From contig NC_045696.1 of NCBI RefSeq assembly GCF_009834535.1, positions 60,762,001 through 60,826,000 of the forward strand: a DNA stretch of 64,000 nt, written 5' to 3'. The stretch is from Camelus ferus. Lineage: Eukaryota. The position numbers and the translations under genes were made by a program. The notes under the pieces were generated by a model, which did no database searches, was not told the DNA's origin, and saw nothing but the letters and a program-made list of their open reading frames with translations. Of this stretch, positions 4,501 to 62,599 are shown piece by piece; the first letter of the stretch is position 1, and each line of letters begins with the position of its first letter.

Positions 4501-7500
4501 ACAATGTTTTTTTAAGCTTCCTTCCTCATAGAACTGGTTAAAGGGAAGAAATCATAACATAGTGACTATAAAGAGTGAGCAGGATAAGAAAAAGAAAAGT
4601 CTAACGCGCAGGTTTGTGGAAGGGGTGGGTCATCTGCAATCTATTTCCCATCTCCTTTCAACAGATTCTCTTGTCTTTGCCATGTTCCAAGGACAGGAAC
4701 TAATCATTTCAGAGCTCCTCGACCTGGTCTGGCTTTCTCCTCATTTCTAGACATTCTCCTACTGTAATCCTAAGTTTCTTACCTCTGAACCAGCTGGAGT
4801 AACTCTCTCATCTCAGCTCTAACTGCTAATGGCTCAATCACTGTTCATCTCTTGGACAATGAGATGGTAATAGTTTCTTATAGTTAACTCTGAGATTAGG
4901 CCTGAGGATGGGAACTTCATCAGAACCACCTATTTGTAGACTAGCAGTCCTCTAATCCTAGCCAAAGAAATTTAACAATAACAACAAAATTAAGTCATCC
5001 TACCAGCTTCACATTAAAAGCTGACTAAGAGTATTCAACACTATATTTACTACATACCGTATCAGAAGCACCTAAGATCTTTTATCATTTCGAATAATTC
5101 ACTGTGCATTACCATTATAACTGCAGAAAACTCAGCTGGCTCACAGGAATTCAGTGAAAAGAGTTAACATAGCAGGCCCGAGATGGCCACTCTTTCAAAG
5201 TCCTGTTTGCAAGGACAGCCTTCAGCTGGTGTCTGGGAACTGGTTTCTTCCAGGCGTTGCCCACTGCCCCTTTTCCTTTTGCTGATTCTGCTTTGTATCT
5301 TTTCCCCTTAACAAAGCTTAGTCACAAGTACAACTAGAGGCAATCTTGTGTCTCCTAGAGAATCATTAAATCTGGGGGTGGTCTTGGACACCCCCAACAC
5401 AAGTATTAACCTTCCAAAACTCATCCTCTACTTATATCCCAAGCCTGCAGGATTTGGGAAAGAAAGGAAATTAAATTTTAGATGTGAAGAAATTTTGAGC
5501 TGTAAAGTGAATGTAGCCCTCTGTTTTCAACCAGACCATGGAACAGGCAAAGGGTTAAAACAGTTTCATTTGAAAAATATCTCCTGTTGAGAAAATGAAA
5601 CATGGCATATTTCAAAATGTCAATCAGTCATAAAATCTCATAGGTCATTTAATTAAAATATCATAGACCATAGGTCAAAGCTTTCATGGAAAGTTCATGA
5701 ACTCTGCTTTTATAACTCTTAGAAGTGGATCATCAACCTCAGTTTGCACACCTTCATTAGTAGGGAACGCACTCTTCTAGAGACAGTCCTTTCCATTCCC
5801 CTCCTGATTCTAAAGGATTTAACCAGAATCTGTCTCCCTACAACTTCAGTTCTACTCTCTGGAGTCTCAAAGAATGAGCAAAATATCCCTGTGAGAACCA
5901 CTGTCTTTGCCAGCCTGTCTTCCTATCTCACCTTGTGAGTGTGTATTTGTGGATCCTTGCACCTTTCTTTGCTTTGTGGGTGTGTCAATCCCTTCTTTGA
6001 GCTTCTTTTCCAGTGTCTTTCCCTCTCTTGCACTTCACCTAGTTATAATATAACTAAAATATACTTAATTGCTTTTTGTATTCAATGAACATAATTTTTA
6101 CTCTTAATTTAAAAAATCAGTGGTTGAAACATTAACTTTTTATAAACTTCAATGACTTTTTTTGTGTGCAAGTCAGAGGTTCTTCACATAGAAAGCTTTC
6201 TCACCCTCACTCTTACTGAAGGGAGGTAAACTTGTTACCTCCCTTCAGTTTCTAACAGTGGAATTGCAATTAGAAGAGAAGACACTCAACCTGTTTTAGA
6301 GCTTCCTTGAAGGGAATTTTCAACATCTTGTAAGAAAAATCTCTCTCTTTATTCCAACCAGAGAGACTACTCACCCAGGGGTAGAGTTCGGGTCAAGTTA
6401 GCAGCTGGAGGATCTGTTTCTGGAGGACAGAGTTCACAGAAGTCCCAGCATGATGGGCAGAGCAGGTTTCCATCGTGAATCCAGCCATTCATCTGAATAC
6501 TGACGGGGAGGACCTGCCCGGCCCGACTACACAAATATGAAGTATCCTGAACCCAAACCTTCAGACCTTGTGGAGAACAAGAAACCTTCAAAAAGTGGGA
6601 AAAAGAATCAGATCAGTAAGATTCTAGTATGTGAGGCTTCTCCTTCAACTGTAGGAAAATATGGTAGAATTTACTAAAAATGCTGGCTATAAAACACAAT
6701 TGGGGATAAGGGAATATTTAAATCTCATACAAAGAGGGTTAAGTTATTCAGGTTGTAAAAGAATTTCACTCTGTGGTAGTAGTTCTTAAACTTTGACCAC
6801 AGTACCTTTTAAAAAATCTTAATAAAATCTATGGACACCTTTCCTAAAAAACACAAGGTAATATGCCACATTACATACAGTTTGAATCCACAGAACCCTA
6901 AAGACAAGGCATTAATAACAACATTTCTGTAGGGGTTCGGTTCCGGTCAAGATGGCAGAGTGGTAGGACCACGAGCTTGCCTCTCCTCGCGACTACAATG
7001 AAACCACAACTGAATGCTAAACAACCATCGAAAAAAGACTGGAACCTAGCAAAAAAGATCTTCTGCAACTGGAAACATAAAGAGGGAACCACAGCAGGAC
7101 AGTAGGAGGGACGTGCTCATGATATAATTGGGCCCCATAACCCCTCGGGTGGGCAACCCACAAGCTGAAGATTTGTTAAGTCGCAGAGGCCCTCCCACAG
7201 GAGTGAGAGCTCTAAGCCCCACGTCAGGCTCCCCAGCTTGGGTCCCGGCAGTGGGAAGAGAAGGAGACCCCAGGACATCTGGTTTTGAAGGTCAGGGGGG
7301 CGTGGCTCAGGGAGTCCCACGGGACTGAGGGAAACAGAGGCTCCATTTGCTTAAGAAGCATACAAGGAAACTCACATGCACCAGGTCCAAGGGCAGAGGC
7401 AGTGATTTCATAGGAACTTGGGCCAGACCTGCCTGCTGGATTTGGAGGGTCTCCCGGGGTGGTAGAGGACGGCTGCGGCTCACTCAAGGGACATAAAAAC

Positions 7501-9188
7501 TGGTGGTGGACATTCCGGGAGTGTTAATCTACATGAGCTTGCTTGGAGGCTGACATTTTGATTGGATCATTAGCACCAACACCGAGCCCCAGCCAACAGC
7601 CTGTAGGGAAGCCTCAGGCCAAACAGCATACAGGGTGGGAACACAGACACACCCACTAGCAGACTTCCTAAGCCACAAAGGCCTCTAGACACGGCCCTAC
7701 CCACCAGAGGTCCAGGACCAAGCTTCACCCAGCAGTGGGCAGGCACCAACTCCTCCTGCCAGGAAACCTGCATAAGCCTCTAGTCCAGCCTCATCCACCA
7801 GGGGCAGATACTAGAAACAAGAAAACAATAATCCCAAAGGCTGTGGAAGGAATCCACAAACACATAGAAAGAAATATGAGGTGGTAAAGGAATATCTCCC
7901 AGGCCAAGGCACAAGATAAAATCCCAGAAGAAGAAATAAGTGGTGAGAAGGTAGGTAATTTATCTGAGAAAGAGTTTAAAATAATGATGGCCAAGATGTT
8001 CAGAGAACTCAAGAGGAGTATAGATGCACAGAGTGAAGTTTTTAGCAAAGAGTTGGAAAATATAAAGAATACCCAAACAGAGTTGAAGAATAAAATCACT
8101 GAAATGAACAATACACTAGAAGGAACCAAGAATAGACTAAATGAGGCAGAAGAAGGGTTCACTGAGCTAAAAGACATATTAGTGAAAATCACTACTTCAG
8201 AACAGAAAAAAGAAAAAAGAATAAAAAGGAATGAGGATAGTTCAACAGAACTCTGGGACAACATGAAGTGCTCTAATATTCACATTATAGGGGTCCAAGA
8301 AAGAGAAGAGAGAGAGAAAGGACCCAAGAAAATTTTTGGAGAGATAATAACTGAAAACTTCCCCAACTTGGGAAAGGAAACAGTCACCCAAGTCCAGGAA
8401 GACCAGAGAGTACTACACAGAATCAACCCAAAGAGGAACACATCAAGGCATCTAGTCATCAAATTGACAACAATTAAGGATAAGGAGAAAATATTAAAAT
8501 TAGCAAGAGAAAAGCAACAAATAACATACAAGGGAACTCCTATAAGGTTATCAGCTGATTTTTCAGTAGAAATTCTATAAGCCAGAAGGGACTGGAAAGA
8601 TATATTTAAAGTGATGAAAGGGAAAAACCTACAACCAAGAATACTCTATCCAGCAAGGTTCTCAATCAGACTTGATGGGGAAATCAAAAGCTTCACAGAT
8701 AAACAAAAGCTAAATGATTTCAGCACCACCAAACCAACTTTAGAGCAAATGTTATAGGACCTACTCTAGTCATCAAACCATAAGAAATGAGAACAAAAAA
8801 AGAAAGAGAAAAAAAAAAGAGACCTACAAAAGATTGCTTTGGCTGTTTGGGGTCTTTTGTGGTTCCTTATAAATTTTGGAATTGTTCCAGTTCTGTGAGG
8901 AATGTCGCGAGTATTTTGATGGGGGTTGCACTGGATCTGTGGATTGCTTTGGGTAGTGTGGCCATTTTGATAGTGTTGATTCTTCCAATCCAAGAGCATA
9001 AGAAATCTTTCTATTTCTTTGTGTTATTTCGGTTTTCGGAGTATAGGTAACCTCCTTGGTTAAGCTTATTTCTAGGTGTTTTGTTGTTTTTGATGTAATG
9101 GAAATGTCTCTGCCAGTTATAAAATTCTGGGTTTTGAAGTGAAAAAAAAAAAAAGTGAATGAAGGGCCGCAAATGGCAAAATATTCCA

Positions 9189-9227
<39 letters not shown>

Positions 9228-11653
9228 TACACTGCATCTCTATTATCTATTCAACTATTGATGTACACTTAGGATGCTTCCATATCTTGGCAATTATAAA
9301 TAACTTTGCTGTTAATAACAGGGCGTATGTATCTTTTTGAGTTAAATCTTATTTTGTGGTTGGCTTTATTCCTTTGATAACTATGTAAGTTTAAAAAGCT
9401 AAAGTTCTAAACATTCTTAGAAACAATGAACAGTATATATATGTAAATTCAAAAATACATGTGCAGTTAAAACAAAAAAACTTATCACGCCATGAAAGAC
9501 ATATTACTAAATGAAAGAAGCCAGCCTGAAAAGGCTACAACTGTACGATTCCAACCAAATGACGGTTTGGAAAAGGCACAGCTACAGAAACAATAAAAAG
9601 ATTGTGGTTTCCAGAGGTTTGGGGAGAGGGAGGGAGGGAGAAATGAATAGATGGAGCACAAGGGATTTTTAGGGCAATGAAATTATTCTGTATGATACTA
9701 TAGTGGTGGCTACATGCATTATGCATTTGTCAAAACCCACAGAATGTACAACATCAAGAGTAAACCCTAATGTAAACTATGGACTTTGGTTGATAATAAC
9801 ATACCCATGTTGGTTCATCAATTGAACCAAATATGCCACACTGGTGAGGGATGTTGAAGGTAGGGGATTATATATGGGTGGGTGGGGCGGACTATGTGGG
9901 AACTCTGTATTTTCTGCTCAATTCTGCTGTAAACATGAAACTGTTCTAAAAAAAGTAATGTCTATCAAAAAAAAATTTCTGTAGATTCTAGTATCCTCCT
10001 TTATTTCAGCTTAAATCTCTGTCAAAGCCATTAACCATGTCATTTTTTTGTGCAAGTCACTATATTTTGTAAATCAAAATTTTATTAGTTGTTTTAAAAA
10101 ATAATATATGTTAATTGTAAAAAAAAAAAAAAAAAAAGAAACACAACAGAGAAATGACATAGTGATAGTTATTCTTTTTCTCTATCCCAGACCCTCTGGG
10201 ATAGAGATAAAAATGTTCATGATGATTACATTATGAGTACAACTGATAACATCTTTAAAGGCAGGACTCATATCTCAAATACAAGGGGTAAATAATAAAA
10301 TCAATTTTTAAAAGCAAACATATTAAAACTAACAAAAAATGTTTAAAATGACTGTATCTTCTTCAATGTTGTTTTCTAAAAGGACTTCACATTAATTTCA
10401 ATTATGCTACGTCACTTTAAATATTTCTGAAACTTCAGTGCATGCTTCTGAATATGTTTGATGGTGACAAATTTTTACTTTGCAAGTAGATGTAAATTTT
10501 GAAAATACCCAAAAGTCGCCAAGAACCAAGTCTAGTTAAAGGCAGTTCATTAAACTGGTTAAGACTAGGTCAACAAAGGTCTTAATTTCCAAATATACAA
10601 ACAGCTCATACAACTCAATAACAACAACAACAAAACAACCCAATCAAAAAATGGGCAGAAGATTTAAACAAACATTTCTCCCATGAAAAGAAGATTAACA
10701 TCATTAATTACCAGAGAAATGCAAATCAAAACTACAATGAGATTATCACCTCACACCAGTCAGAGCCATCATTCAAAAGTCCACAAGCGATAAATGCTGG
10801 AGAGAATGTGGAGAAAAGGGAATTCTCCTACACCACTGGTGGGAATGTAGTTTGGTGCAACCATTATGGAAAACAGGAGATTCCTCAAGAAACTAAACAT
10901 AGACTTACTACACAATTCAGCAATCCCATTTTTCAGCATATATTCAGAGGGAACTCTAATTCAAAAAAATACATGCACCCCAATGTTCATAGCAGCACTA
11001 TTTACAACAGCCAAGACATGGAAACAACCTAAATGTCCATCGACAGATGACTGGATAAAGAAGTTGTACTGTATTTATGCAATGGAATACTACTCAACCC
11101 TAAAAAAGAATAAAACAATGCCATTTGCAGCAACATGGATGGAACTGGAGATTGTCATTCTAAGTGAAGTAAGCCAGAAAGAGAAAGAAAAATACCATAT
11201 GGTATCACTTATATGTGGAATCTACAAAAAAGACAAATGAACTTATTTACAAATCAGAAACATATTCACAGACACAGTTTACAACACTGTAAACTGATTA
11301 TACTTCAATAAAAAATTTTTTTAAAAGATGTGGCATATAGATACAATAGAATACCTCCCAGACACAAAAAAGAATGAAATAATGCCATTTTTAGCAACAT
11401 GGATAGAACTGGAGATCATGCCAAGTGAAATAAGCCAGAGAAAGAAAGAAAAATATCATGATACCACTTACATATGGAATCTAAACAAAGGACACAAATG
11501 AATTTATTTACAAAACAGAAACAGACTTACAGACACAGAAAACAAACTTATGGATACCAGGGGGAGAAGGGAGGAGTAAGGGATAAATTGGGAGTTTGGA
11601 ATTTGTAGATACTAACTTGTAATGGCCTATAATGGAAAAGACTATGAAAAGGA

Positions 11654-20700: not shown

Positions 20701-23700
20701 ATCCCAAAAGGCTTTATACAGTATGAGCTATTTATATAATATTTCTGAAATGAAAAAATTACAAAATGGAGAACAGATAAGTGGTTTCCAGGGGTTAAGG
20801 AGGGATAGGGTGGGAGGGAAGCAGGTATGGCTACAAAAGGGCAACAGGAGGGATCCCACTGGGAATCCAAATGTTCTGTATCTGGCTGTATCAATGTCAA
20901 TATCCTGGTTGTGATATTGTACTACAGTTTTGCAAGATGTTACCAATCAAGGACACTGGATACAAGTGTATATGGGATCTCTGTATTTTTATTTTCTCAC
21001 AACTGTATGTGAATCTACAATCACCTTAAAAAGTTTTAAAATATATACGTTTATAAATATATAAACATGTGTGTATCCCCCCAAATTGGAGACTATATTT
21101 TTTAAAAAGCTTGCTAGGTAATTATGATATGCATTCAGATTAGAGAACCAGTATTCAAAAGTAGTTTTATGTTTTTGATACTGAATCAACAGTTGCATCT
21201 ATGTTTATGAGTACATTCTCTGAAGAAAACAAGTAAGAATGAAAATGAAGAGTATGAAACAAATTTGCAGTAAATTTATTTATGAATAATAAGCTAACCA
21301 GAAAAGTTTTATGGTTCTGGCTGTCACAATGTGGATTCTTTTGGTATACTCTTTAAAACAATACTGTGGCTACTTATGATATTATGACAAAGATTGTTTT
21401 CTATACATTTTGAAATTGAACTGTTTGGACCACATTTTGAAAATAGGACATTTTAGGCTCTAGATAAAGAACAACATCGGAAATAAACTGTTATCAAAGA
21501 CATTGTGAAGAAATGCATCCTTACTTTTGTCTCTGCTGATCAATCCAGAATTTACAGCTCTTCTCAACAAAATCACAACCCATTCCTCGGCCCCAGTCTA
21601 ATTTCTCAGCCATGCTGTAATTAGCTTTATACCAGCTGTGGAAAAAATTCAAACAAAGCACTTTATATTACTGTCATTTAAAAAGCGACTCTAGTATACC
21701 AATGACAAATCTTAACAATGAGCAAACTAGGACCTCAAAAAGGACTTTGGTGACCATCACCACAGATGAGCATTTATGAACAAAGCTCTTGCTGCACAGG
21801 ATTGCTGTACAGATCACTGTAGCAGGGCCCGGGAAACTTTAGTCTTGAAGGAAATGTGAGTATTTAAGAGTATCTTCATATTTGAAAAAATCAAAATCAA
21901 ACCATGTTTCATTATAATTTTCAAAAATGACAGAAGTCATAGAGTAGAAAGTAGTTAACGTGTGAGACAAGGGGAATAAAAGGCAAAGAAACAGAAAGAA
22001 TGAGAGAAAAAGAGAAGGGAGCAAGTTGAGGAAGGAAAGTGGAATTACTAGTTGGCCGGCCTCTACCTAATCTGGTCCAGTTGGCCCTAGTTTCTTGCTT
22101 CCCTGGTCTTGAATTTATAATATTCTATCAGTATGGGCCCTGTTTGTGACTAAATACTACACCATTATAATAAGATAAATGACACAGAGAAAAAAATGTG
22201 ACAATGAGTGTGTATATGTCCATGAATAACTGAAAAATTGTGCTGAACACTGGAATTTGACACAACATTGTAAAATGATTATAAATCAATAAAAAATGTT
22301 AAAAAAAAATAAGATAAATGAATACTATTTCCAACACATTGCAAATGTTTCAATTTCAGAAAAACAAAAACACATTGATTTACTTCCCTGACAAAATTAA
22401 TCAAAGGCAATGAAGCTACTTTTATTAGTTTTGCTTCTTTATTCTTAATGACAAGATTAGTTTACAGAAGTTATAAAGTTACACAAAATAGTTTCTGTCA
22501 TGTTTGTATTATATCTTGTCCCCTCAGCATTACCAAAATAGTTAATAAAAACACAGGCTCAAAGGCTGGGGGAATGATAAGAATCATCCTCTCCACTCCA
22601 GCACTTCCCACAAAATCTGAGACAGCAGAAATACATGACATAGCATCTTTCAAACTTTCTCCCCTTCCAAAGAACAGAACTGTCTCACTCAGACAGAACC
22701 TGAAGAAATGAAGCCCGGCACTCCAACACCAAAATGCCTACAACTTCTACAGCTACCAAGTGAGTCCCGCTGACCAGCTAACTTGGTATCACAGCAGGTC
22801 AAGGTGTCTGGATAGTAACAGGTGCCCCCAGTCTTGCACACTAGTGGTTATTTTAGCAGTGCCTAGGTTAGGAAGTCCTTCTCCCAGTGAATAAAATATA
22901 AAGTAATTAGATTCCCTTGGGAATGACCATATCTAGCACAGGTTCATGGATGCAAAGTATCAGCACCACGTCACTCAATCACCAGCTGGGCACTCCAGCT
23001 ACATTTCTTGAAACCTTCTTGATATCTTTTCTTTGCAGTTCTTCCTGTACTATTAGTCAACAGTTATTAAGCACTTCCTGTGTGCTAGGCACCGTGTTAA
23101 ATGCTAAGGCTACACAGTGGAGAAACAGTTCCTGCCCTCACAAACATTATAACCTAGTGGGGAAGGCAAATACAAAAAAGAAAATTCCAAGTGTGATGAG
23201 TATGACACAGGCTAAGTATAAGGTGCTAATAGGAGCACATTAATAGGGAAACCTAAGCTAATCTGGGGAATTAGAAAAGGTTTTATGAGGAAGCGACTTA
23301 AAGCTAAACCCAGAAGGATAAGCACAAGTTAGCTGAGGGAACAATTAGAAACAAGATTTCTTGGTGGCATTTAGGGAGCTGTGAAATCAATTTAGTGGAT
23401 CTTAATCAATGTTTCTTTCACTCTCTCTTTTAAAATCAATAGAATATAGCTATAAAAAATTGCATAATAGAAGATTTTTTAAAAATAAAAAATCAATAGA
23501 AAAAGAGGACTGCACTGTAGGTAGTAAGGGTAAATATTATTTCATGAACCTCTGAATGATTTAGTTATATATATAATAGCTAATACTTAATTGGTCCTTA
23601 TAATGTGCCAAGTTCGGTACTAAGGGCTTTACATTTTTTTTTTTTAGGGCTTTACATATGTTAACTTATTCAAGCTCATAAAACTCTACGAGGTAGATAC

Positions 23701-27078: not shown

Positions 27079-30000
27079 TGTGTGTGTATCCTTTGACTCA
27101 GAAATTCCATTTCCAGGAATTCATCCCTTCTCTTTCTATATAAACAAACTTTTTAGTTCTGCTCCCTTGGAAACCTAATAAAGGTGGAATGTCAACTGTG
27201 TTACCAGGCAACAGGATGCAAAGCAAGAAGACCACCTGCTATGCCTCTGGACTTGGGATTACTATAAATGAACATGAACACCTATTGGCAAACAGTGTGG
27301 GACTTCTCTGTTTGCAGTGACTCTTATGGGTATGTCTCTTACAGGCATCTGGAAGTTATGTCTATGAAGCTGTTAAAAAGAATGTTGGTTCTTATTTGGG
27401 ACACAGTACTTCTAAGCCTGGCTGGTTCTTACACCCCTCTGATACTTAAGACTATTCTTGTGCTTATGGTATTTGAGCTGGAGGGGGAGGGAGAGAGGCC
27501 CAGATGATAGCCCCCAGACTACTGTGTAGAGCACAAGAGAAATGCCTGTCTCTGCAATGCTGGCATGCTGTACTTTCTTGTACCCTTCTAATGTATTTTC
27601 AGTGTGACCTGTTTAGGTCTTATGAGCTTGACTGATGGTTTAGTTGAACCTAAGAACACCCACTGGAATGCCACTCCTGTAAGGCACTGCAGATATAAAT
27701 AAATCGCTCATCACATTTTTAGAATAAAAAATTTAAAGTATAGTCATTCATTCACATGCGACTATGTTACATTCATATAATATAATACTACATAGCTGTT
27801 AAAAAATAAATAGATCCAAGTATACAATCTATTCTACTGAAGCATATATTTCTGTAATGTGAATGAGCTCATGTGAGACTGGTAAAGGAATAGCATCAGT
27901 GTAATATGGAGTTATGTTGGTTCATAATGATTTCTCCCTGGATTTTAATGTTTTGTGCAGTGGAGTAATAGTAGCTAAATACAACGTACACTAAGACAGC
28001 CAAAAGCAGCAACAGAGGAAGGCTGTGCTGGGCATTGTGCCCAGTCACTCTGTGTTCTTCCAATTGACTCAGCATGGCCAGAGGCTGTCTTAGAAGTGTT
28101 TGTTGCATGATTCTCTAACCTTTGTACATTTTACTCTTGTCCTCATTATTCAGATTTATAATTCTTTAAGCTTTAAGCTCTAAAAACTATATATAATTGA
28201 TGATTTATCTATCTACCATTGCTTTTTGCTGTTAAAGAAACACTAAATCTAGGAGTTTATTTATTGAAAACATGTATATTTTAAAAATAAGCTACTACTT
28301 TTATTATGATTTAGTGCCTTTGTTAATAATCTGGTATTTGTGTTTTCCACAAGCCTTGTTATCTTTAGTGTTCGATTTGGAAAAAAGGGGTTTTTTAGGA
28401 CAGCATACATTGTATTACAGCAGAAGCACCTAAACTGCCTTGGAAATACGTCTAAGATATATGAGTGAAAAAAGTTGCATAAATGTATGAACCGATTAAA
28501 AAAAAAACAACCATGTGTTAGTGTGTCTGTCAGTCTGTCTATCTATTTATCTAACATTTCCAAAAGGATATTAAAAAAATTAAATAGTGATTACATCTGG
28601 AAAGTGCGTCTGGAGAGCTAAAGGGGAAAATGAACTTTTTAATTTTTCACTTGATAACCTATCATACATTTGAGTAAGAATTACTTTTATTAAAGAAAAA
28701 ATGCAGAGTAAAATTTTAAAATAAACTAACCTCTAATAACCTTTTTTCCCAATGGTTGAGCTCAGTGCCCATACCACCTTGGTTTTCAAGTTCCATTCCC
28801 TCCAAAATTGGACAGTTAAAATGTTTTCGTGCTTCATCCTAAGAATCAGGAAAATAAATAAATAAATATACCCTACAAAAGTACAATAAAATAATGGCAA
28901 ACTATTTATCACACTGGATATAATAAAGTATAATAAAATACATTTAATATAATTTTTCATATAATTAAAATATTTTGATACTACATTACTATTAAAGTAC
29001 TATTGCTATTAAATTACTATTTTTCAAGGATTTCTGATCAAGATGGCGGAGCAGTAGGACCACAAGCTTACCCCCAATAATGACTACAACAAAACCACGA
29101 CTGACTGCTAAACAATCAACAAAAAATAAGACTGGAACCTAGCAAAAAAGATCTTCGTCAACTGGAAACATAAACAGGGAACCTCAGCAGGATGGTATGA
29201 GGAGTGTGCTTGTGATATTATTGGGACCCATACCTCTGGGGTGGGCAACCCACAAGCTGAAAAATAATTAAGTTGCAGAGGCCCTCTAGTAGGAGTGAGA
29301 ATTCTAAGCCCCACATCAGGTTCCCCAACCCAAGGTTCTGGCATTGGGAGGAGGAGACCCCAGAACATATGGTTTTGAAGGCTAGCAGGGCTTAACTCCA
29401 GGAGCCCCACTAGACTTGGGGAAAACAGAGACTTCACTCTCTTGGAAAGTGCACACAAAATCTCACATGTGCCAGGTCCAAGGGCAGAGGCAAGTGATTT
29501 CATAGGAACTTGGGTCAGACCTGCCTGCTGATTTTGAAGGTCTCTTGGGGAGGTAGAGGACAGCTGTGGGTCATCCTGGAGACATAAAAGCTGGTGGCAG
29601 ACACTGCAGGAGTGTTCATCTACATGAGCTTTCTTGGAGGCTGACATCTTGCTTGTGTCATTAGCACCAAGACCTAGCCCCACCCAACAGCCTGTAGGCT
29701 TAAGTGCTGGGAAGCCTCAGGCAAATAACATACTGGGTGGGAATGCAGCCCCAATCATCAGCAGACCCCCTGAGCTACAAAAATCTCTAGACACAGCCCT
29801 ACCCACCAGAGGTCCAGGACCAAGCTTTACCCAACAGTAGGCAGGCACCAACTCCTACTGCCAGGAAACCTGCACAAGCCTCCTGTCCAGCCTCATCAAC
29901 CAGGGGGCAGATACCAGAAATAAGAAAACAATAATCTCAAAGTTTATGGAAGGAATCTGCAAACACAAGCCAGACTACCCTGGGAAGAGCTGGATGCTGG

Positions 30001-33000
30001 CCCTTGGGTGACGAGACGAGTGTACTGCTGGGATACATAGGACGTCTCCCACAGAGGACCACCTCTCCAAGGTCAAGAAATGTAACTAACCTACATAAAA
30101 ATACCAACAGAAATTTACACAATATGAGGTGGCAGGAGACTATATTCCAGGCAAAGGCACAAGATAAAATCCAGAAGAAGAAATAAGCAATGAGGAGATA
30201 GGAAATCTATCCAAGAAAGAGCTTTGAGTTACAATTGTGAAGAGGTTCAGAGAACTCGGGAGGAGAATGGATGCACAGAGCGAAGCTTTTAGCAAAGAGT
30301 TAGAAAATATAAAGAATACTCAGAGTTGAAGAGTACAATTACTGAAATAACACAATAGAAGGAATCAGGAATAGACTAAATGAGGCAGAAGAATGAATCA
30401 GTGAGCTACAAGACAGATTAGTGGAAATCACTACTTCAGAACAGAAAAAAGAAAAAAGAATGAAAAGAAATGAGGGTAGTTTAAGAGAATTCTGGGACAA
30501 CATGAAGCGCTCTAATATTCACATTATAGGGATCCCAGAAAGAGAAGAGAAAGAAATGACCTGAGAAAATATTTGAAGAGATAATAACTGAAAACATCCC
30601 TAACGTGGGGAAGGAAACAGTCACCCAAGTCCAGGAAGTACAGATTCCATACAGGATTAACCCCAAACAGGAACACACCAAGGCATGGTAATCAAATTGA
30701 CAAAAATTAAAGATAAGGACAAAATATCAAAATCAGCAAGAGAAAAGCAACAAATTAACACAAAAAGGAACTCCCGTAAGGTTATCAGCTGATTTTTCAG
30801 GAGAAACTCTACAGGCCAGAAGGGAATAGCATGATATATTTAAAGTGATGAAAGGAAAAAACTTACAACCAAGAATACTCTACCCAGCAAGGCTCTCATT
30901 CAGATTTGACAGAGAAATCAAAAGCTTCACAGATAAACAAAAGCTAAAAGAATTCAGCACCACCAAACCAGCTTTACAAGAAATGTTAAAGGAACTTCTC
31001 TAGGTAAAAAAAGAAAAGGCCACAACTAGAAACAAGAAAAGTAGTCATGAAGGGAGAAGGGTACAATGCAGGGTATCGAAAATGCATTTGAAATTAAGAG
31101 ATCAGCAACTTAATTATGTATATACAGACTTCTAAACCAAAACCTCATAGTAACTGCAAACCAATGTAACTCCATAGTCATCAAACCACAAGACAATAAA
31201 AACAAAGAGGAAAAAAGACCTACCAAATTACTATTTCTTTCAATATTTTTTCGTCTGTTGAAGATTTTGACTTTAAGTCATATATATTTCAAAAAAGTAA
31301 TAGGGTAGTATGATTACATTTGTAACTTTTGTGTCAACAATGCTTTTAATGTAGGTGTGACCGCTCTTATTATGGATATAGGCTTTGTGGGGAAAATAAG
31401 TTGTTTAAAAGAAAACACTTTTGCTCATTTGGTTCTGTCTGTCCTTCAGTTAGAGATTTCCAAGAATAGGAAATATCCCAAGAGCAGTGCAAAAGTTTAG
31501 AAGTCAGAGAGAGCTGTGTGTAACCAAGGAATAGAGAAGGGAGAATAGGTTTCTGTCATTAAATAAGAGGGTATGATGATTAATTTTATGTGTCAACTTG
31601 GCTGGGCCACAGTGCCCAGATATTTGGTCAAACATTATTATGAATGTTTCTGTGAAGGTCTTTTTGGGTGAAATTAACATTTACATTAATGGACTTTAAG
31701 TAAAGCAGATCACTTTCTATAATATAAATGGGCTTCATCTAATCAGTTGAAGACCTTTACAGATCAAAGACAGACTCACCCCTGAGCAAGAAGGAGTCCT
31801 ACTAGCTGACTGCCTTCAGACTTAAACTGCAACTCTTCCCTGAGTCTTCAGCTTGCTAGCCTACCTCACCAGATTCTGGACTCTCCAAACCTCCCCAACT
31901 ACGTGAACCAACCTTAAAATAAATCTCTCTCTCAACACATCCTGTTGGTTCTGTTTCTCTGGAGAACTCTGACTAAAACAGATTTCAGCTGAAATGACCA
32001 GCAATTATGCAAATAGTACCGGTGATCCTAAGAGGTATCACAACACACCACTAGTGTCACAACCTAAAGTAGTTGGTAGAATGGAGCTATAAGAGTCACT
32101 GCCAAATTTCTATTTCCTCAAATTTTTCATGGCCTGTAGCTTTACTGTACTGCCTTAATATTATCTTTCCTACTATAAGCTTTCAAATGTAATCATTAGT
32201 TCTTAAACAATAATGATTAGTAGACCATAATGAATGAAAAGAACAGACGGCTCCTGAGACAGGAAGCTCTGTAATACTCACGACAACACGAGGTGTTACT
32301 AGAAGATACACAGTGTGAGGAACTCTCTTATTATCTCGAACATCCCATGATCTCTCTACTTTTCGAACTACTTTATCACTCCACTGATATAATCCAAGAC
32401 TGCAATTAAAGAATAAAATGTCAGTTTTTACACATTCACCTCTACTTTAAATGTAAGTGTGTTTATGAGTATCAATATGAAATTTAACTATCTGAGTTTA
32501 CTGAACATAAGAGCATGCAAAGTTCTTGATAGTATTTTCTAATTTAATCTTTTCAACAACTTTATTATCATCACTATTTTGCAGATAAAGAGACAGAAGC
32601 TTAGAGAGATGAAGTAACTTACTCAAGTTCAAATAGCTAATATTTGGCTAAGATGACAATGAATTACTTCCTCTTAACAAATTTACTCGATAAAATAAAA
32701 GCATTCCCAGGGACATACCCAAGCACTGAATATAAGAAACTGTAATAAACAAAAAAAATGGAATTTTTAATTTAGTGGGAAACTATAATTTACTTAATAA
32801 CTGTGCTATAAAATCAGTTTATCCATTTAGGAAAAAAAAGTTTCAGCTCACATACAGAAATAAATTTCAGACAAATATCAGCAAAAGTGACAAAATAAGG
32901 ACCTCTGAAAATTTTCTACTTCATGAAAGCAATGAGAAAAGTAGCAAAATTGGCCAAATCAACTTTTTTTTAGAACTCTGGAAATTAACCAAAGACTTGC

Positions 33001-45000: not shown

Positions 45001-48000
45001 TAGTGCCCGCAGGTCTACGGACCTGAAAAGTCTTCTCTAAATAATAAACAGCTTGTGGGAAAAGTTTGTTCTAAATAAAAGTGGAAAAAAACCAGTCAGA
45101 ATTACTGCCAAAAGATGAATTATATTTATAACAAGCAAGCATAGGATATTCATGACTAAGGGGAAAGAAGGAAAAGGCCTTATAATTCTGGAATACAGAT
45201 ACTAGTTAGATACAAGTTCACATTTGATATTAAGTTAGCCTTCTCATTTTATAACTTGATAAATATATTGGTGAAAAGTATAAATATATTCACTACTAAC
45301 ATCTTTTATTCAGTCATTCACAAAATAGTCATGTATATATTCCTCATTACTGAAGTAAAATTTACATACAACAAAATCCACCCATTTTAAGTATTCAATT
45401 CAAGCCATGAGTACTTATTACATACCTTTACAAGGTATCTTTTCTCAGGGAGCAACCTGAAAATATAATGACATAAAACATAAAAATTGCCATGCTAAGG
45501 GCAGAGTACAGTCTCATTTGTTCAGAATACATCTGGCAGGAGCCCCAAGGAATGCTTTGTGGAAACATGCAGTACCAGTCCCCTCAAATCTCAGTTTACC
45601 TCAATGAGCATTTAAGAGTTTATTCTGTGCCAAAACACAACGCCAGGCATGATAACATACTGCTTCATTTCTTCGGAAAATTAAAGATAGGGAAAGACAT
45701 CAATTACTCCTAGTACCTGTTTAAAAACTACTACAGATTCATTATTTTACCTGCTTTCTGGACTCCCCTTACACTAAACTAAAAATTAGGCTACATCATC
45801 TCTCTGGTTAATAACTTCATAAATATTCTCATTATTGTATACATTAGTACTTCCTCTTATTTTCCTCCAAGTACTTATTGTGGAAGTGCCTTCTAGGTCT
45901 GTTACTGACCAAATCCAAGTAGATATACACTGGTTCTGTTTAAATTATTCATGATGTGTAGAGTCAAACCATATCCTATGGCATTCATCTTTCCAAACTA
46001 AAAAGCATATTTAGCTTAATTCCATTTTGAGGGTGCATTAGCACCTAGTTCCATCTATGGAACTCTAGGTAACAGATGAAACTATCTTCAATAGTTTGAT
46101 TCTTAATTTAAAAAGATGACAAAATAATGGTGTACTTACTCTTCAATACTTTTATCATAGACAATCTTGATTCTTAAATGTTCATTAATATCTCTCTTTA
46201 CAACATGATTTGCCTTAAGATGGACCTTATTTATCACCTGAAAAAAAAAAAAGGAATAGATTTGGGGGGAAAAAAGTATAGATTAGCTAATTGAGGTCCC
46301 AACTTAAAATTAATAAACTAAAGCACAGAGAGTACCACACAGGGTCAACCCAAAGAGGAACACATAGTTATGAAACGGACAAAAATTAAGGATAAGGAGA
46401 AAATATTAAAATTAGCAAGAGAAATGCAATAAATAACATACAAGGGAACTGACAAGGTTATCAGCTGATTTTTCAGCAGAAAATCTACAGGCCAGAAGGG
46501 AATGGCAAGATATATTTAAAGTGATGAAAGGGGAAAATTTACAACCAAGAATACTCTATCCAGCAAAGCTTCTGTTCACATTTGAGGGAGAAATCAAAAG
46601 CTTCACAGATAAACAAAAGCTAAAAGATTTCAGCACCAAACCAGCTTTACAACAAATGTTAAAGGAACTTCTCTAGTCATCAAACCATAAGGAAAGAGAA
46701 CAAAAAGAAGAAAGAAAGAAAGACCTACAAAATACTGCTTTGGCTGTTTGGGGTCTTTTGTGGTTCCTTATAAATTTTGGAATTGCTTGTTCTAGTTCTT
46801 TGAGGAATGTCATGAGTATTTTGACATGGGTTGCACTGGATCTGTGGATTGCTTTGGGTAGTGTGGCCATTTTGATAGTGTTGATTCTTTCAATCCAAGA
46901 GCAAAGAAATCTTTCCATTTCTTTGTGTCATTTCGGTTTTCGGAGTATTTCTAGGTATTTTGTTGTTTTTTATGCAATAGAAATGTTTGTGCCAGTTATA
47001 AAATTCTGGTTTTTGAAGTGAAAAAAAAAAAAAGTGAATGAAGGGCCGCAAATGGCAAAATATCCTTCTTTCTTATAGGTGAGTTGTATTCCATTATATA
47101 ATACGTATATACTGCATCTTTATCTATTCAACTATTGATGTGCACTTAGGATGCTTCCGTATCTTGGCAACTGTAAATAATGTCGCTGTTAACAGCAGGG
47201 TGTATGTATCTTTTTTAATTAATTCTTATTTTTTGGTTGGCTTTATTCCTTTGATAACTATGTAAGTTTAAAAGCTAAAGCTCTAAACATTCTTAGAAAC
47301 AATGAACAGTACATATATGTAAATTAAAAAATACATGTGCAGTAAAAAAAAAAAAAGAAATGAGCTATCAAACCATGAAAGATCTAGAAGAAACTTAAAA
47401 GACATATTACTAAATGAAAGAAGCCAGTCTGAAAAGGTTACAGACTATATGATTCCAACCAAATGACATTCTGGAAAAGGGAAAGCTACAGAAACAATAA
47501 AAAGATAATGATTTCCAGGGGTTTGGGAGAGAGAGGAGGGAAAGAATAGATGGCACACAAGGGATTTTTAGGGCAATGAAATTATTCTGTATGATTCTAC
47601 AGTGGTGACTACATGTCATTATGCATTTGTCAAAACCCATAGAATATACAACATCAAGAGTGAACCCTAAGGTGGAGGGGGGTGGGAAAGGACAGACTGG
47701 GAGTTCAAAATTTGTAAATACTGATAGGCATATGCAGAATAGATAAACAAGATTACACTGTATAGCACAGGGAAATATATACAAGATCTTGTGGTAGCTC
47801 ATAGTGGGAAAAAAATGTGACAATGAATATATGTATGTTCAAGTATAACTGAAAAATTGTGCTCTACATTGGAATTTTACACAACATTGTAAAATGACTA
47901 CAACTCAATAAAAAAAAGTTTAAAACAAAAAAAAAAGAGTGAACCCTAATGTAAACTACGGACTTTAGTTGATAGTAATGTGCCCATGTTGGTTCATCGA

Positions 48001-51000
48001 TTTTATCAAATATGCCACATTGATGAGGGATACTGAGGGTAGAGGAGTATATATTTGTGGGTGGGGAGGGCTATGTGCAAACTCTCTGTATTTTCTGCTC
48101 AATTCTGCTGTGAACCTGAAACTGCTATAAAAAATAAAATCTATTAATAAAAAATTAATAAACTAAATTTCAAGTGTAACACTCCCCCCCCCCAAATAAA
48201 AGAACTAAATAAATGGAGAGACAGTTCATGCCCATGGATGGGAAGACTCAAATATTATCAAGATGTCAATTCTTCCCAACTTCATCTATAGATTAAATGA
48301 AATCTGAATCATAATCCCACAAATTATACTGTGAAATGTCAACAAACTGATTCCAAAGTTTATATTAAGGGCAAAAGACCCAGAATAGCTAACAAAATGT
48401 TAAAGAAAAAAAACAAAGGTGAAGGACTGAGAAAACCTGACCTCAAGATTTACTATAAAATTACAGTATCCAGACAGTGTGATACTGGCAAAAGAGAAAC
48501 AAATAGATCAATGGAACACAATAGAGAGCCCAGAAATAGATCCATAGAAATACAGTCAACTGGTCTTTGACAGATTTTGGCCAAAATCTGGAACACATAC
48601 AACACCAAATGCTGGCCAAAGATGTGGGGCAGCAGAAACTGTTATTCATTGCTGGTGGGAATACAAAATGTACAGCTACGCTGGGAGACAGTTTGGCAGT
48701 TTCTTACAAAATTAAACATATTTTTACCATAACTACCCAGTAATCATGCTCCTTGGTATTTACTCAAATGAGTTAAAAACTTACAGCCACACAAAAACTT
48801 GTTTACAGATGTTTATAGCAACTTTATTCATAACTGCTACAACTTAAAAGCAGCCAATGTGTTCTTCAGTATGTGAATATATAAATAAACAGTGGTAAAT
48901 CCAGAAATGGAGTATTATCCAGAGCTAAAAAGATGACCTATGTACCTTTCGCATCTGGGTAGTCTCGTCTAACAATTCCTCTATAGAAAAAGAAAAAAAA
49001 AAAAGATGACCTATGAAGTTATGAAAAGACATAGAGTAACCTTAAATACTTCTCAGTAAGTGAAAGAAGCCAATCTGAAAAGATTACATACTATATGATT
49101 CCAACTATATGACATTCTGGAAAAGGCAAAATTATGACAGTAAAAAGATCAGTGTTTGCCAGGGAAGGAAGGGTGGGAATGAATAGGTGGAGCACAGATG
49201 ATTCTGAAGGCAGTGAACTACCCTGTATGATACTGTAATGATGGTTACATGTCAGTATACATTTGTCCAAACCCACATAATGTACAGCACCAAGAGTAAA
49301 CCCTAATTTAAACTGTAGACTTTGGGTGGTTATGACGTGTCAACACAGTTTCATCAGTTGTAACAAAAGTACCACTCTGGTTGGGAATGCTGTATGCATG
49401 TAAAGAGGAACAGGGTATTTGGGAAATCTCTGTACCTTCTTCATAATTTTACAGTGAATCTAAAACTGCTTTTAAAAATTAACTAATTTTTAAAAAATGA
49501 AGATAGAAGACAATGGAACACATAGTTCAAGTGTTAAAAGAAAGCTGTTCAACACTTAAGTCTGTATCCAGTGAAACGCCTCCTCAAAAAAGAAGAGGAA
49601 ATACAGATATTTCAGATACACAGAAATGGAAAGAATTCATCAACAGCAGACCCCTACCACAGGAAACACTAAAGGAAGTTCTTTTTGGTAACAGAAATGA
49701 CACTAGATGGTACCTCGGATCTTGTCTTAGCTCAGGCTGCTGTAACAGAATATCACATACTGGTGGCTTATAAACAACAGAAATTTATTCCTCACACTTC
49801 TGGAGGATGGCAAGTCCAAGATCAAGGTACTTGAAGTCTGGGTGTCTAGTGAGGGCCCAATTCTTGTTTCTTAAGGCCATATTCTCAAATTTTCATTGTA
49901 GCCCCTGGCAGAAGGGGCCAAGAGCTCTTTCATACAGGTATTAATCTCATTCCTAAGGGCTCTGCCTTCAAGACCTAATCATCTACCAAAGACCTCACCT
50001 CTTAACCATTATGCTGAGAGTTAGGATTTCAACATATGAATTTGGGGGGGAAACAAACATTCAGTTTATACCAGGTCTATATGAAGGAATGAAAACAACT
50101 GGAAATGATATATAAGTAAATATAAGGCTATTGTGCATAAAACAGTTAATATAGCAGGCCTCTGCCTGCTATCTTTAGAAAGGCCTACTTGCAAATTTGA
50201 CCTTTCACTGGTCAAAGAACTTGAATGGAAAATAGTTCCCCTACAGTGATATAAAACTTCCCTAAGTGATAAGGGAGTCTCATTGTGCCAAAACTGTTAA
50301 TAGAAATAATATAGTTTATGCTGAACATTTGTTTACTTCTCAGAGCCAGGAATGTTAGTGAGTGAAAAGGTGCCTACATGACCAATCTCCAACAAAAACC
50401 CTGGGCTCCTAGACTCAGATGAGCTTCCCTGCAGACAACATTTTGTGCTTGTTGTTACAAATTACTGCTGAAGGGATTAAGCATGTCCTGTGTGATTCCA
50501 CTAGCAGAGGACTCTTGGAAATGAGGAAAATTCAATTAACAAGTTAAGAAGAAGAAAGGGAATTTTATTCAAGTCAAACTGAGGATTATAACCTGGGAGA
50601 CACACTCTCAGAAGTTCTGAGAGCTGTTCCTTCTACCTGTTAGAAGTCAAAGGCACAGTCACATACATTTTCAAGAAAGGATCGTACATCAAAATGACAT
50701 AGTGATATTTTACACAAAGTTCACCAAAGATATATAGTCCAGGTAAGTACACACAAAGCCAAAGCAAGCATCAAGTCACTGTGACCCCCTACAGAGTTGG
50801 GAAAGAACGCTATTCTTTTAAGAAATTACATTCCTAGTACCAGAAGAAAGGGAAAAACTGATCTTTTTGGTTGAGCAGGCATTTCCATCTTTGAGGAGGC
50901 CTGGTTAATGTGTAATGCAGATGCACACAGGGAGGGAGGGAGGAAGCCCAAAAAGACAGAGAGAACTTTATGTTTAGATTTTCTGGTCCTGCCTTAAAAT

Positions 51001-56665: not shown

Positions 56666-56900
56666 GGAGTACGTGACGCCTCCGCGCCCAGCGCCAGCCC
56701 CGCCCCTCGCCTCTCCAGGCAGGTGGAGGGACGAGGCGGCGGAAAGGTGCTTTTTGATTGGCTAGCGTCACCCGTAGGAAGTTCACCGCGGATGAGCGTT
56801 GCATCACGTCCAACGCGTCTCATTCGCGTGAAGTCGGCCAATAAATGCCGTTTGGCCGCCCACGTGAGTCGGGCTGTGAGAAGACTAGCGGGTGTTAATG
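56420..56900. promoter_or_regulatory. CpG-island bidirectional promoter (LMLN minus / IQCG plus)
   Basis: CpG-dense; GC box near 56698-56706, oppositely oriented CCAAT boxes (about 56757 and 56838), TGACG half-sites, YY1 and RFX-like motifs. Confidence 0.8.
56447..56665 (-). CDS. LMLN: LMLN exon 1 coding part (73 codons, MVTTLG...VPSDSE)
   Basis: N-terminal part of ORF 56381..56665; donor GAG|gtaggg; hydrophobic signal-like stretch [11 protein letters not shown]. Confidence 0.93.
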
Positions 56901-62011: not shown

Positions 62012-62599
62012 CTTTAAAACAAACAAAAATAATCAGTTTAAAACCTTGCAAAGTGCATTTCCCACGTAGTCTCCTCCGGAAAAGCACCCCAAATTCAGAG
62101 ACTGCCTGATAGCTAAGCAAACTCCAAAATGAAGACAAAAACAAAAAGTGGCAAGGCTCCACACTAAAATCACTGACTGAACCAAATATGCTACATGGAT
62201 GAGGGAGAATGAGAGTAGGGAAGTATGTATATGTGGGTGGGGAGGGCTATGTTGGAGCTCTGTATTTTCTGCTCAATTCTGCTGTAAATCTAAGACAATT
62301 CTAAAAAAATTAAGTCTATCAAAAACAAAAGACTCCACACCAAAAGAAGTAACTCCTAGAAATCCCAAAGGAAGCCTTAAAAATAATTCATGCCATCCAT
62401 GATCAGCCAAAAAAAGGAGTCAAAAGCACACAGAAAGTAAGTTTTAAGCACTGAACGCAAAAGAAAAGCTAAGGAAAGACTGGGAACAAGCCAAACCAGG
62501 TTTGGAGTAGGAGTAAATGGACAATGAACCTTGCCTAAAAGAGCCACTGCTTCAGAAGGGGAACTGCTGCCAGACAAAATGCATCTACTTCCCTCCCCT

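Follow-up and report, generated by a model that had tools for sequence, protein, structure and literature searches.

A 64,000-nt stretch of the Camelus ferus genome (contig NC_045696.1, positions 60,762,001 to 60,826,000; the window) carries a 3-kb retroelement that consists of an L1 5′ untranslated region (UTR), open reading frame 1 (ORF1) and a patchwork tail. This element, copy A, was compared with three further copies in the window, named B, C and D. All coordinates are positions within the window. Copy A is very probably a dead, full-length, ORF1-only L1 derivative, whose family likely made its own ORF1 protein (ORF1p) and borrowed the L1 ORF2 protein (ORF2p), as HAL1 (half-L1) elements do. 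The parts of copy A are as follows.

6923..6932, + strand: left target-site duplication (TSD), 10 bp, identical to 9975-9984
6933..7875, + strand: L1 5′ UTR, 943 nt; 763/913 aligned nt are the same as in the copy C 5′ UTR
7876..8769, + strand: ORF1, 297 codons, 3 premature stops, no frameshift; from reading frame and Pfam
8770..8831, + strand: shortened inter-ORF stub, 62 nt, closing with an A-run; 173 nt of copy C missing
8832..9104, - strand: inverted ORF2 scrap 1 (human ORF2p ~788-842); from protein match; internal deletion common to A and B
9105..9166, no strand: linker 1 with an A13 tract (9142-9154); 59/62 nt identical in A and B
9167..9350, - strand: inverted ORF2 scrap 2 (human ORF2p ~1187-1224); protein match made on copy B
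9351..9485, no strand: linker 2; 111/115 nt identical in A and B
9486..9974, + strand: 3′ end of an old L1, closing with A8 (9967-9974); identity 88.6% to copy B, 75% to an older L1 copy in the window (~49020-49300)
9975..9984, + strand: right TSD, identical to 6923-6932

The outer repeats match exactly and enclose 3042 bp. As a control for the TSD, random pairs of zones (30 × 30 nt) from the window were compared, and 0/1492 pairs held an exact match of at least 10 bp. An earlier note, made from the letters of this DNA, had described a 10-bp TSD around 3 kb, and this result bears it out. The L1 5′ UTR that it named is present, and the ORF1 that it placed at 7876-8769 was confirmed by a single reading frame and by Pfam domains. 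Tnp_22_dsRBD (E = 1e-21) and Transposase_22 (E = 7e-21) were found in the ORF1 of copy A, and Tnp_22_trimer fell slightly short of the cut-off (E = 2e-4). By eye, the 5′ UTR is similar to the head of pig L1A/HAL1_SSc. It contains, at 6948-6956, what we take to be a YY1-like motif. The inter-ORF motif gacctacaaaa is present at 8821-8831 as the note described. No functional sense ORF2 was found inside the TSDs of copy A, where the sole ORF2 sequences are the two inverted scraps and, probably, a short remnant of the C-terminus; an Rfam search of 6800-10200 returned no families.

The inverted ORF2 fragment, A-tract, second inverted fragment and linker of the earlier note were all recovered. Scrap 1 (8832 to ~9104) matched human ORF2p residues 788-842 (E = 3e-13). 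Scrap 2, queried as copy B 47050-47240, matched residues 1187-1224 (E = 0.003). Read along the minus strand, the C-terminal scrap precedes the more central one. Because this order is not colinear with ORF2, the scraps are not a single inverted L1. Scrap 1 has a deletion relative to ORF2 that is common to copies A and B, and within the window both linkers occur only in these two copies. The scraps are 94.3% and 88.3% identical between A and B and the linkers 95.2% and 96.5%, so the scraps are no better kept. Approximately 25 nt were lost by A and by B, each from one antisense scrap. An (AC)n microsatellite at 9191-9226 is confined to copy A, adjoined by a 26-nt deletion; copy B has a short TA-rich stretch there. 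The predicted folding of 8770-9500 is less stable than that of 19/20 shuffles, which argues against a structured RNA in this region. Pfam searches with nine frames of the scraps and tail found no families.

In the sense tail, A and B are 88.6% identical to each other and 74-75% identical to an old L1 copy at ~49000. Since the two tails resemble each other more than either resembles the old copy, the apparently ancient part has the same recent ancestry as the rest of the element. Its identification as an L1 3′ end is based on the 74-75% identity to the ~49000 copy, the upstream part of which matches ORF2p. By the same alignment, the final few dozen codons of an old ORF2 probably stand at the start of the tail. 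A search of the PDB with this vestige gave no matches. The "ancient L1M-type 3′ end" of the earlier note stands as an old L1 3′ end with an A-tail that probably begins with the last ORF2 codons, and L1M, or L1MC-like, is a presumptive label. The note had also proposed that the 3′ UTR was taken from genomic debris beside a master locus. Debris capture is supported by the tail identities (88.6% between A and B against 75% to the old copy) and by the deletion that both copies share in scrap 1.

The same mosaic was found a second time in the window.

46323..48150, + strand: copy B, 5′-truncated in ORF1, same mosaic; TSD 46306-46322 / 48151-48167, TT/AAAA site

The TSD of copy B is a 17-bp exact pair, and every junction of copy A is repeated in the same order. 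Altogether 1233/1355 aligned bases are identical (91%). Identity ranges from 85.6 to 96.5% in 7/7 segments, although these segments are of very different origin. When the 3′ flanks of the two copies (600 nt each) were compared, the only matches were short ones (10–31 nt, E ≥ 0.01), and block indels in the tail distinguish A from B. Shared junctions, separate TSDs, unrelated 3′ flanks and the 5′ truncation of copies B and D indicate that the mosaic moved as one RNA. Thus the earlier note was right that the order and junctions of copy A recur at 46323-48150 under a different TSD, and that the whole was mobilised as one unit. Homology past the TSDs, which it had named as a sign of local duplication, was absent on the 3′ side.

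Two further copies bear on the origin of the mosaic.

29023..31224, + strand: copy C, 5′ UTR, ORF1 and ~220-nt inter-ORF, tailless, no mosaic; 12-bp TSD 29011-29022 / 31225-31236, TT/AAAT
62170..62328, + strand: copy D, 3′ end only; 17-bp TSD with 2 mismatches (62153-62169 / 62329-62345)

Copy C is 83.6% identical to copy A in the 5′ UTR and 86.8% in ORF1, and it ends at the inter-ORF motif where A and B switch into the mosaic. It has ~150 nt of 5′ UTR directly upstream of the ATG and 173 nt of inter-ORF, both missing from A. The 173 nt lie past the ORF1 stop and are missing from B as well. This segment starts with GT, ends with AG and is bordered by a TAG triplet on each side. The donor-like end reads AG/GTAAAA, the acceptor is A-rich and weak, and the TAG microhomology amounts to 3 nt. 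The segment may have been lost by splicing or by a microhomology jump, which are indistinguishable since the acceptor is A-rich and weak. The boundary motif downstream of the segment occurs in long pig inter-ORFs, which makes the longer inter-ORF the ancestral state. The short inter-ORF reported earlier is thus present, and it is itself a derived deletion from the longer state seen in copy C. Pig inter-ORFs are mostly 390-529 bp, and by eye the ~220 nt of copy C are already without blocks found in them. The inter-ORF motif was also seen ~25 nt upstream of the ORF2 ATG in L001, a non-family L1 with an ORF2 start and a very short inter-ORF. L001 was the sole confirmed hit among 237 candidate stretches from an ORF1 search of metagenome contigs. 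A SINE-like (short interspersed element) insertion with an A-run splits its ORF1 (L001 510-720).

Internal priming at A-rich sites has been put forward to explain tailless copies (PMC5322556). Copy C could stem from internal priming on an L1 RNA, or on the RNA of an earlier family member. From its structure it is possibly a birth intermediate of the mosaic family. For copy D, identity is 79-80% with A and B, against 56.5% with the old copy. A TSD like that of copy D was found in 0/594 random zone pairs. Judged by these values copy D is a probable member of the mosaic family, and it has none of the internal junctions.

All three ORF1 copies in the window (A, B and C) are dead. The stops in copy A are at codons 4, 235 and 294, and two of the three are two-base differences from the other copies. 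There are no indels in its 894 nt of ORF1, and there are several in B and in C. In a three-way comparison of 112 codons each premature stop and each indel was confined to one copy. As no disabling change is common to A, B and C, the pattern fits a source with an open ORF1. Private changes of copy A in the 3′ half of ORF1 (9 nonsynonymous, 3 synonymous and 2 stops) are neutral-looking. The lack of frameshifts in the copy A ORF1, where 5.8 indels would be expected (P about 0.003-0.01), was considered as a sign of exaptation or of a younger source and set aside because the test was post hoc, copy A has three stops and the 3′-half changes look neutral.

The A–B distance of 0.096 corresponds to 19-32 million years at assumed rates of 1.5-2.5e-9; the literature examined for rates held no usable camelid substitution rate. 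The estimate is older than the Camelini-Lamini split, 16.3 million years as quoted in PMC6726744. Sampled words of 6600-9185 were sought in sequencing runs, and 20/23 listed runs, from three organisms and nine studies and each with ~2 Gb of contigs, hold 0.55-0.59 of them. The flank (13%) and words from other copies (roughly 22-33%) fall short of this share, so copy A is likely present in all three organisms. The share was not used for divergence since assemblies drop repeats. Two extra insertions in 64 kb would scale to 7,600-226,000 per 2 Gb if uniform density is assumed.

These results suggest a history in which priming of an L1 RNA at the A-run that closes the inter-ORF left a 5′-complete insertion without ORF2. 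Copy C has exactly this form, and it may reflect the founder. One such insertion would have landed just upstream of decayed repeats, comprising two inverted ORF2 scraps, unique DNA and a same-facing old L1 3′ end. Read-through from its promoter to the old poly(A) signal would then have produced an RNA of ~3 kb. Relative to C, the 173 nt past the ORF1 stop were lost between the two TAG triplets, through splicing or a microhomology jump. The mosaic was inserted repeatedly: its copies have TSDs, A-tails and T/A-rich target sites, and some are 5′-truncated. The family would have been active roughly 19-32 million years ago, and its copies are now dead. Dependence on ORF2p in trans is likely, given the target sites and the absence of ORF2. 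The family itself is likely an extinct camelid one of HAL1 type.

Several results weigh against an amplified family with a working ORF1. Only two copies have the internal junctions, and both are within one 64-kb window. Scans for the junction motifs found none in metagenome contigs and none in viral contigs, which probably contain little host DNA. When a junction-spanning spurious frame of copy B was used in a protein search, 1/6 candidates matched, and this was generic antisense ORF2. In the Repbase table of the wild-camel casein cluster (190 kb, 169 elements) and part of the Bactrian sheet, no run of names was legible as the mosaic. The casein-cluster table parts name L1-1/-2/-3_Vpa and no camelid HAL1, and that region shows no mosaic copy. 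A canonical AATAAA near the 3′ end is present in copy B and lacking in copy A. Purifying selection on ORF1 was not significant: dN/dS (the nonsynonymous to synonymous substitution ratio) between A and C is 0.52, and neutral simulations with transition bias gave means of 0.64-0.74 (P = 0.08-0.22). Furthermore, ORF1 identity is 88.9% between A and B and 86-87% between either and C, so that A and B are barely closer to each other.

Some of these points suit a small transduction family, in which one ORF1-only source left few offspring with its downstream flank, ORF1 lay idle and movement resembled that of processed pseudogenes. Just two junction-bearing copies, nonsignificant selection on ORF1 and the lack of a recognisable mosaic in the casein-cluster table would all be expected of it. 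However, three insertions with the tail in 64 kb would be improbable if the family were tiny, and extrapolation from the single additional junction copy gives 790-174,000 copies per 2 Gb under a uniform density, which does not hold. The copies have no disabling change in common, and the block indels between the tails of A and B could mean more than one source. We regard such a family as unlikely.

A bolder reading takes the window as a fossil series of HAL1 birth. It would run from tailless copy C through debris capture and inter-ORF shortening (~400 nt in pig L1, ~220 in C, 62 in A and B) to the family, and in its boldest version the scraps were kept for pairing with L1 mRNA. By pairing with the 3′ region of mRNA from autonomous L1s, the scraps would bring HAL1 RNA close to new ORF2p, or L1 would be damped via double-stranded RNA. 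The pairing idea is given little weight because the scraps are no better kept than the linkers, ~25 nt have been lost from a scrap in each copy and folding fell below the shuffles. We hold this reading to be very unlikely.

The mosaic could also have been made in one insertion, through twin priming or a switch of template between cellular RNAs, and then amplified. Twin priming typically leaves inverted L1 pieces, and the junction after the inter-ORF A-run is abrupt. Yet the scraps are not colinear, both copies have scrap 1 with the internal deletion already in place, and the tail derives from a far older L1 that would not have been an active RNA, which makes this origin highly improbable. Local duplication or gene conversion between the loci of A and B, which are 40 kb apart on the same strand, is scarcely credible, because the TSDs differ, homology stops at the tails, the 3′ flanks are unrelated and B is 5′-truncated at its own TT/AAAA target site.

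The surroundings of the copies contain other L1 sequence and traces of a gene.

47671..47934, + strand: younger L1 3′ end nested in copy B; 15-bp exact TSD 47656-47670 / 47935-47949

A relative of this nested 3′ end, 85% identical, lies at 22189-22312. An old internally deleted L1 (ORF2 to 3′ end, 48190-49490) adjoins copy B on the right; it has the same tail type at 75% identity. To the right of copy A, at a distance of 650 bp, is another L1 3′ part (10622-11540, + strand), inside which is a near-tandem repeat of ~200 bp at 11077-11538. Exon-like frames on the minus strand between 6370 and 56760 presumably belong to the leishmanolysin-like gene LMLN. When these frames were compared with consecutive parts of Pfam Peptidase_M8, 2/5 matched weakly and below the cut-off (E = 0.004 and 0.044), and a further 0/2 matched. 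A GC-rich region near 56400-56900 would hold the first exon of this presumed gene. If the assignment is right, A, B and C would be antisense within introns of LMLN.

If the three insertions in 64 kb reflect how common the ORF1-only family is, repeat maskers without its consensus would label the tails as ancient L1M and antisense L1. Tails mislabelled in this way would inflate old repeat classes and lead to misdated insertions in these genomes. Taken with pig HAL1_SSc, the mosaic suggests that related L1 heads in artiodactyls have given rise to ORF1-only parasites several times independently. A concrete, testable route for HAL1 birth is offered by copy C, and known HAL1 biology is unchanged.

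In L1 3′ transduction, transcripts read through into the flank and end at a downstream poly(A) signal, and the mosaic would be alike in this respect. Unlike in L1 3′ transduction, the source of the mosaic is without ORF2, and the captured flank has become a standing 3′ UTR. SpIREs (spliced integrated retrotransposed elements; PMC5860796) are a second likeness, as A and B are without a GT..AG-bounded segment that is kept in C. The splices of SpIREs stay inside the 5′ UTR or run into ORF1, and such copies are described as dead ends, whereas the deletion in A and B lies after the ORF1 stop, has a weak acceptor and a 3-nt microhomology, and is common to two insertions. Copy C resembles tailless retropseudogenes (PMC5322556) in being 5′-complete, TSD-flanked and without an A-tail, with an A-rich internal end. 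Those retropseudogenes derive from small RNAs, histone mRNAs and Alu, whereas the template of copy C was an L1 or HAL1 RNA.

HAL1s encode ORF1p only and have several independent origins in mammals (PMC5753468). They bear tails and TSDs and rely on the L1 reverse transcriptase and endonuclease (PMC5322556). Rat HAL1 has ~7500 copies, and the benefit proposed for it is that ORF1p binds its own mRNA (PMC2241872). A long inter-ORF inhibits retrotransposition (PMC4072516). The HAL1-like reading of the earlier note fits the published definition in four structural features. The copy A element has an L1-derived 5′ UTR and ORF1, and no functional ORF2 lies inside the unit. Copies A and B have an A-tail and TSDs, consistent with target-primed insertion. 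Repeated mobilisation is seen in its minimal form, as two junction-bearing insertions and one probable 3′-end copy in 64 kb. The likeness to HAL1 (PMC5753468, PMC5322556, PMC5786205, PMC3627910, PMC2241872) extends to the L1 5′ UTR with ORF1 only, the A-tail, the TSDs and the absence of a functional ORF2. Neither a HAL1 tail built like this one, from a pair of inverted ORF2 scraps, a pair of linkers and an old L1 end, nor a HAL1 of this host lineage was found described in the literature searched. The ORF1 of guinea-pig HAL1 is reported to have stayed coding for 29-44 million years (PMC3627910), whereas dN/dS in the window was not significant. Among the titles listed in the literature searches none concerned a camelid HAL1, and passages of two camel repeat papers (PMC8605555, PMC6675863) make no mention of HAL1; this family may appear in the supplements of PMC8605555.

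Pig HAL1_SSc / L1A6 (PMC6501411) is alike in size (3016 bp, with a 5′ UTR of 944 and an ORF1 of 906), and by eye its 5′ UTR is related. It is also alike in plan, with an inter-ORF stub followed by unrelated AT-rich DNA and an L1-like 3′ end. Its 3′ half is different, judged by eye and motif and not by alignment. When short motifs from the window were sought in the available pig supplement files (PMC6501411), where line breaks can hide matches, 7/8 were unmatched and the one match was the general inter-ORF motif. On these features pig HAL1_SSc is the nearest published match in plan and size, with another tail, and likely had a separate origin from a related L1 head. The kind of element is already known in mammals as HAL1, and Dfam or Repbase may hold an entry for the mosaic. 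Over known HAL1s, copy C and the inter-ORF deletion series are a modest addition.

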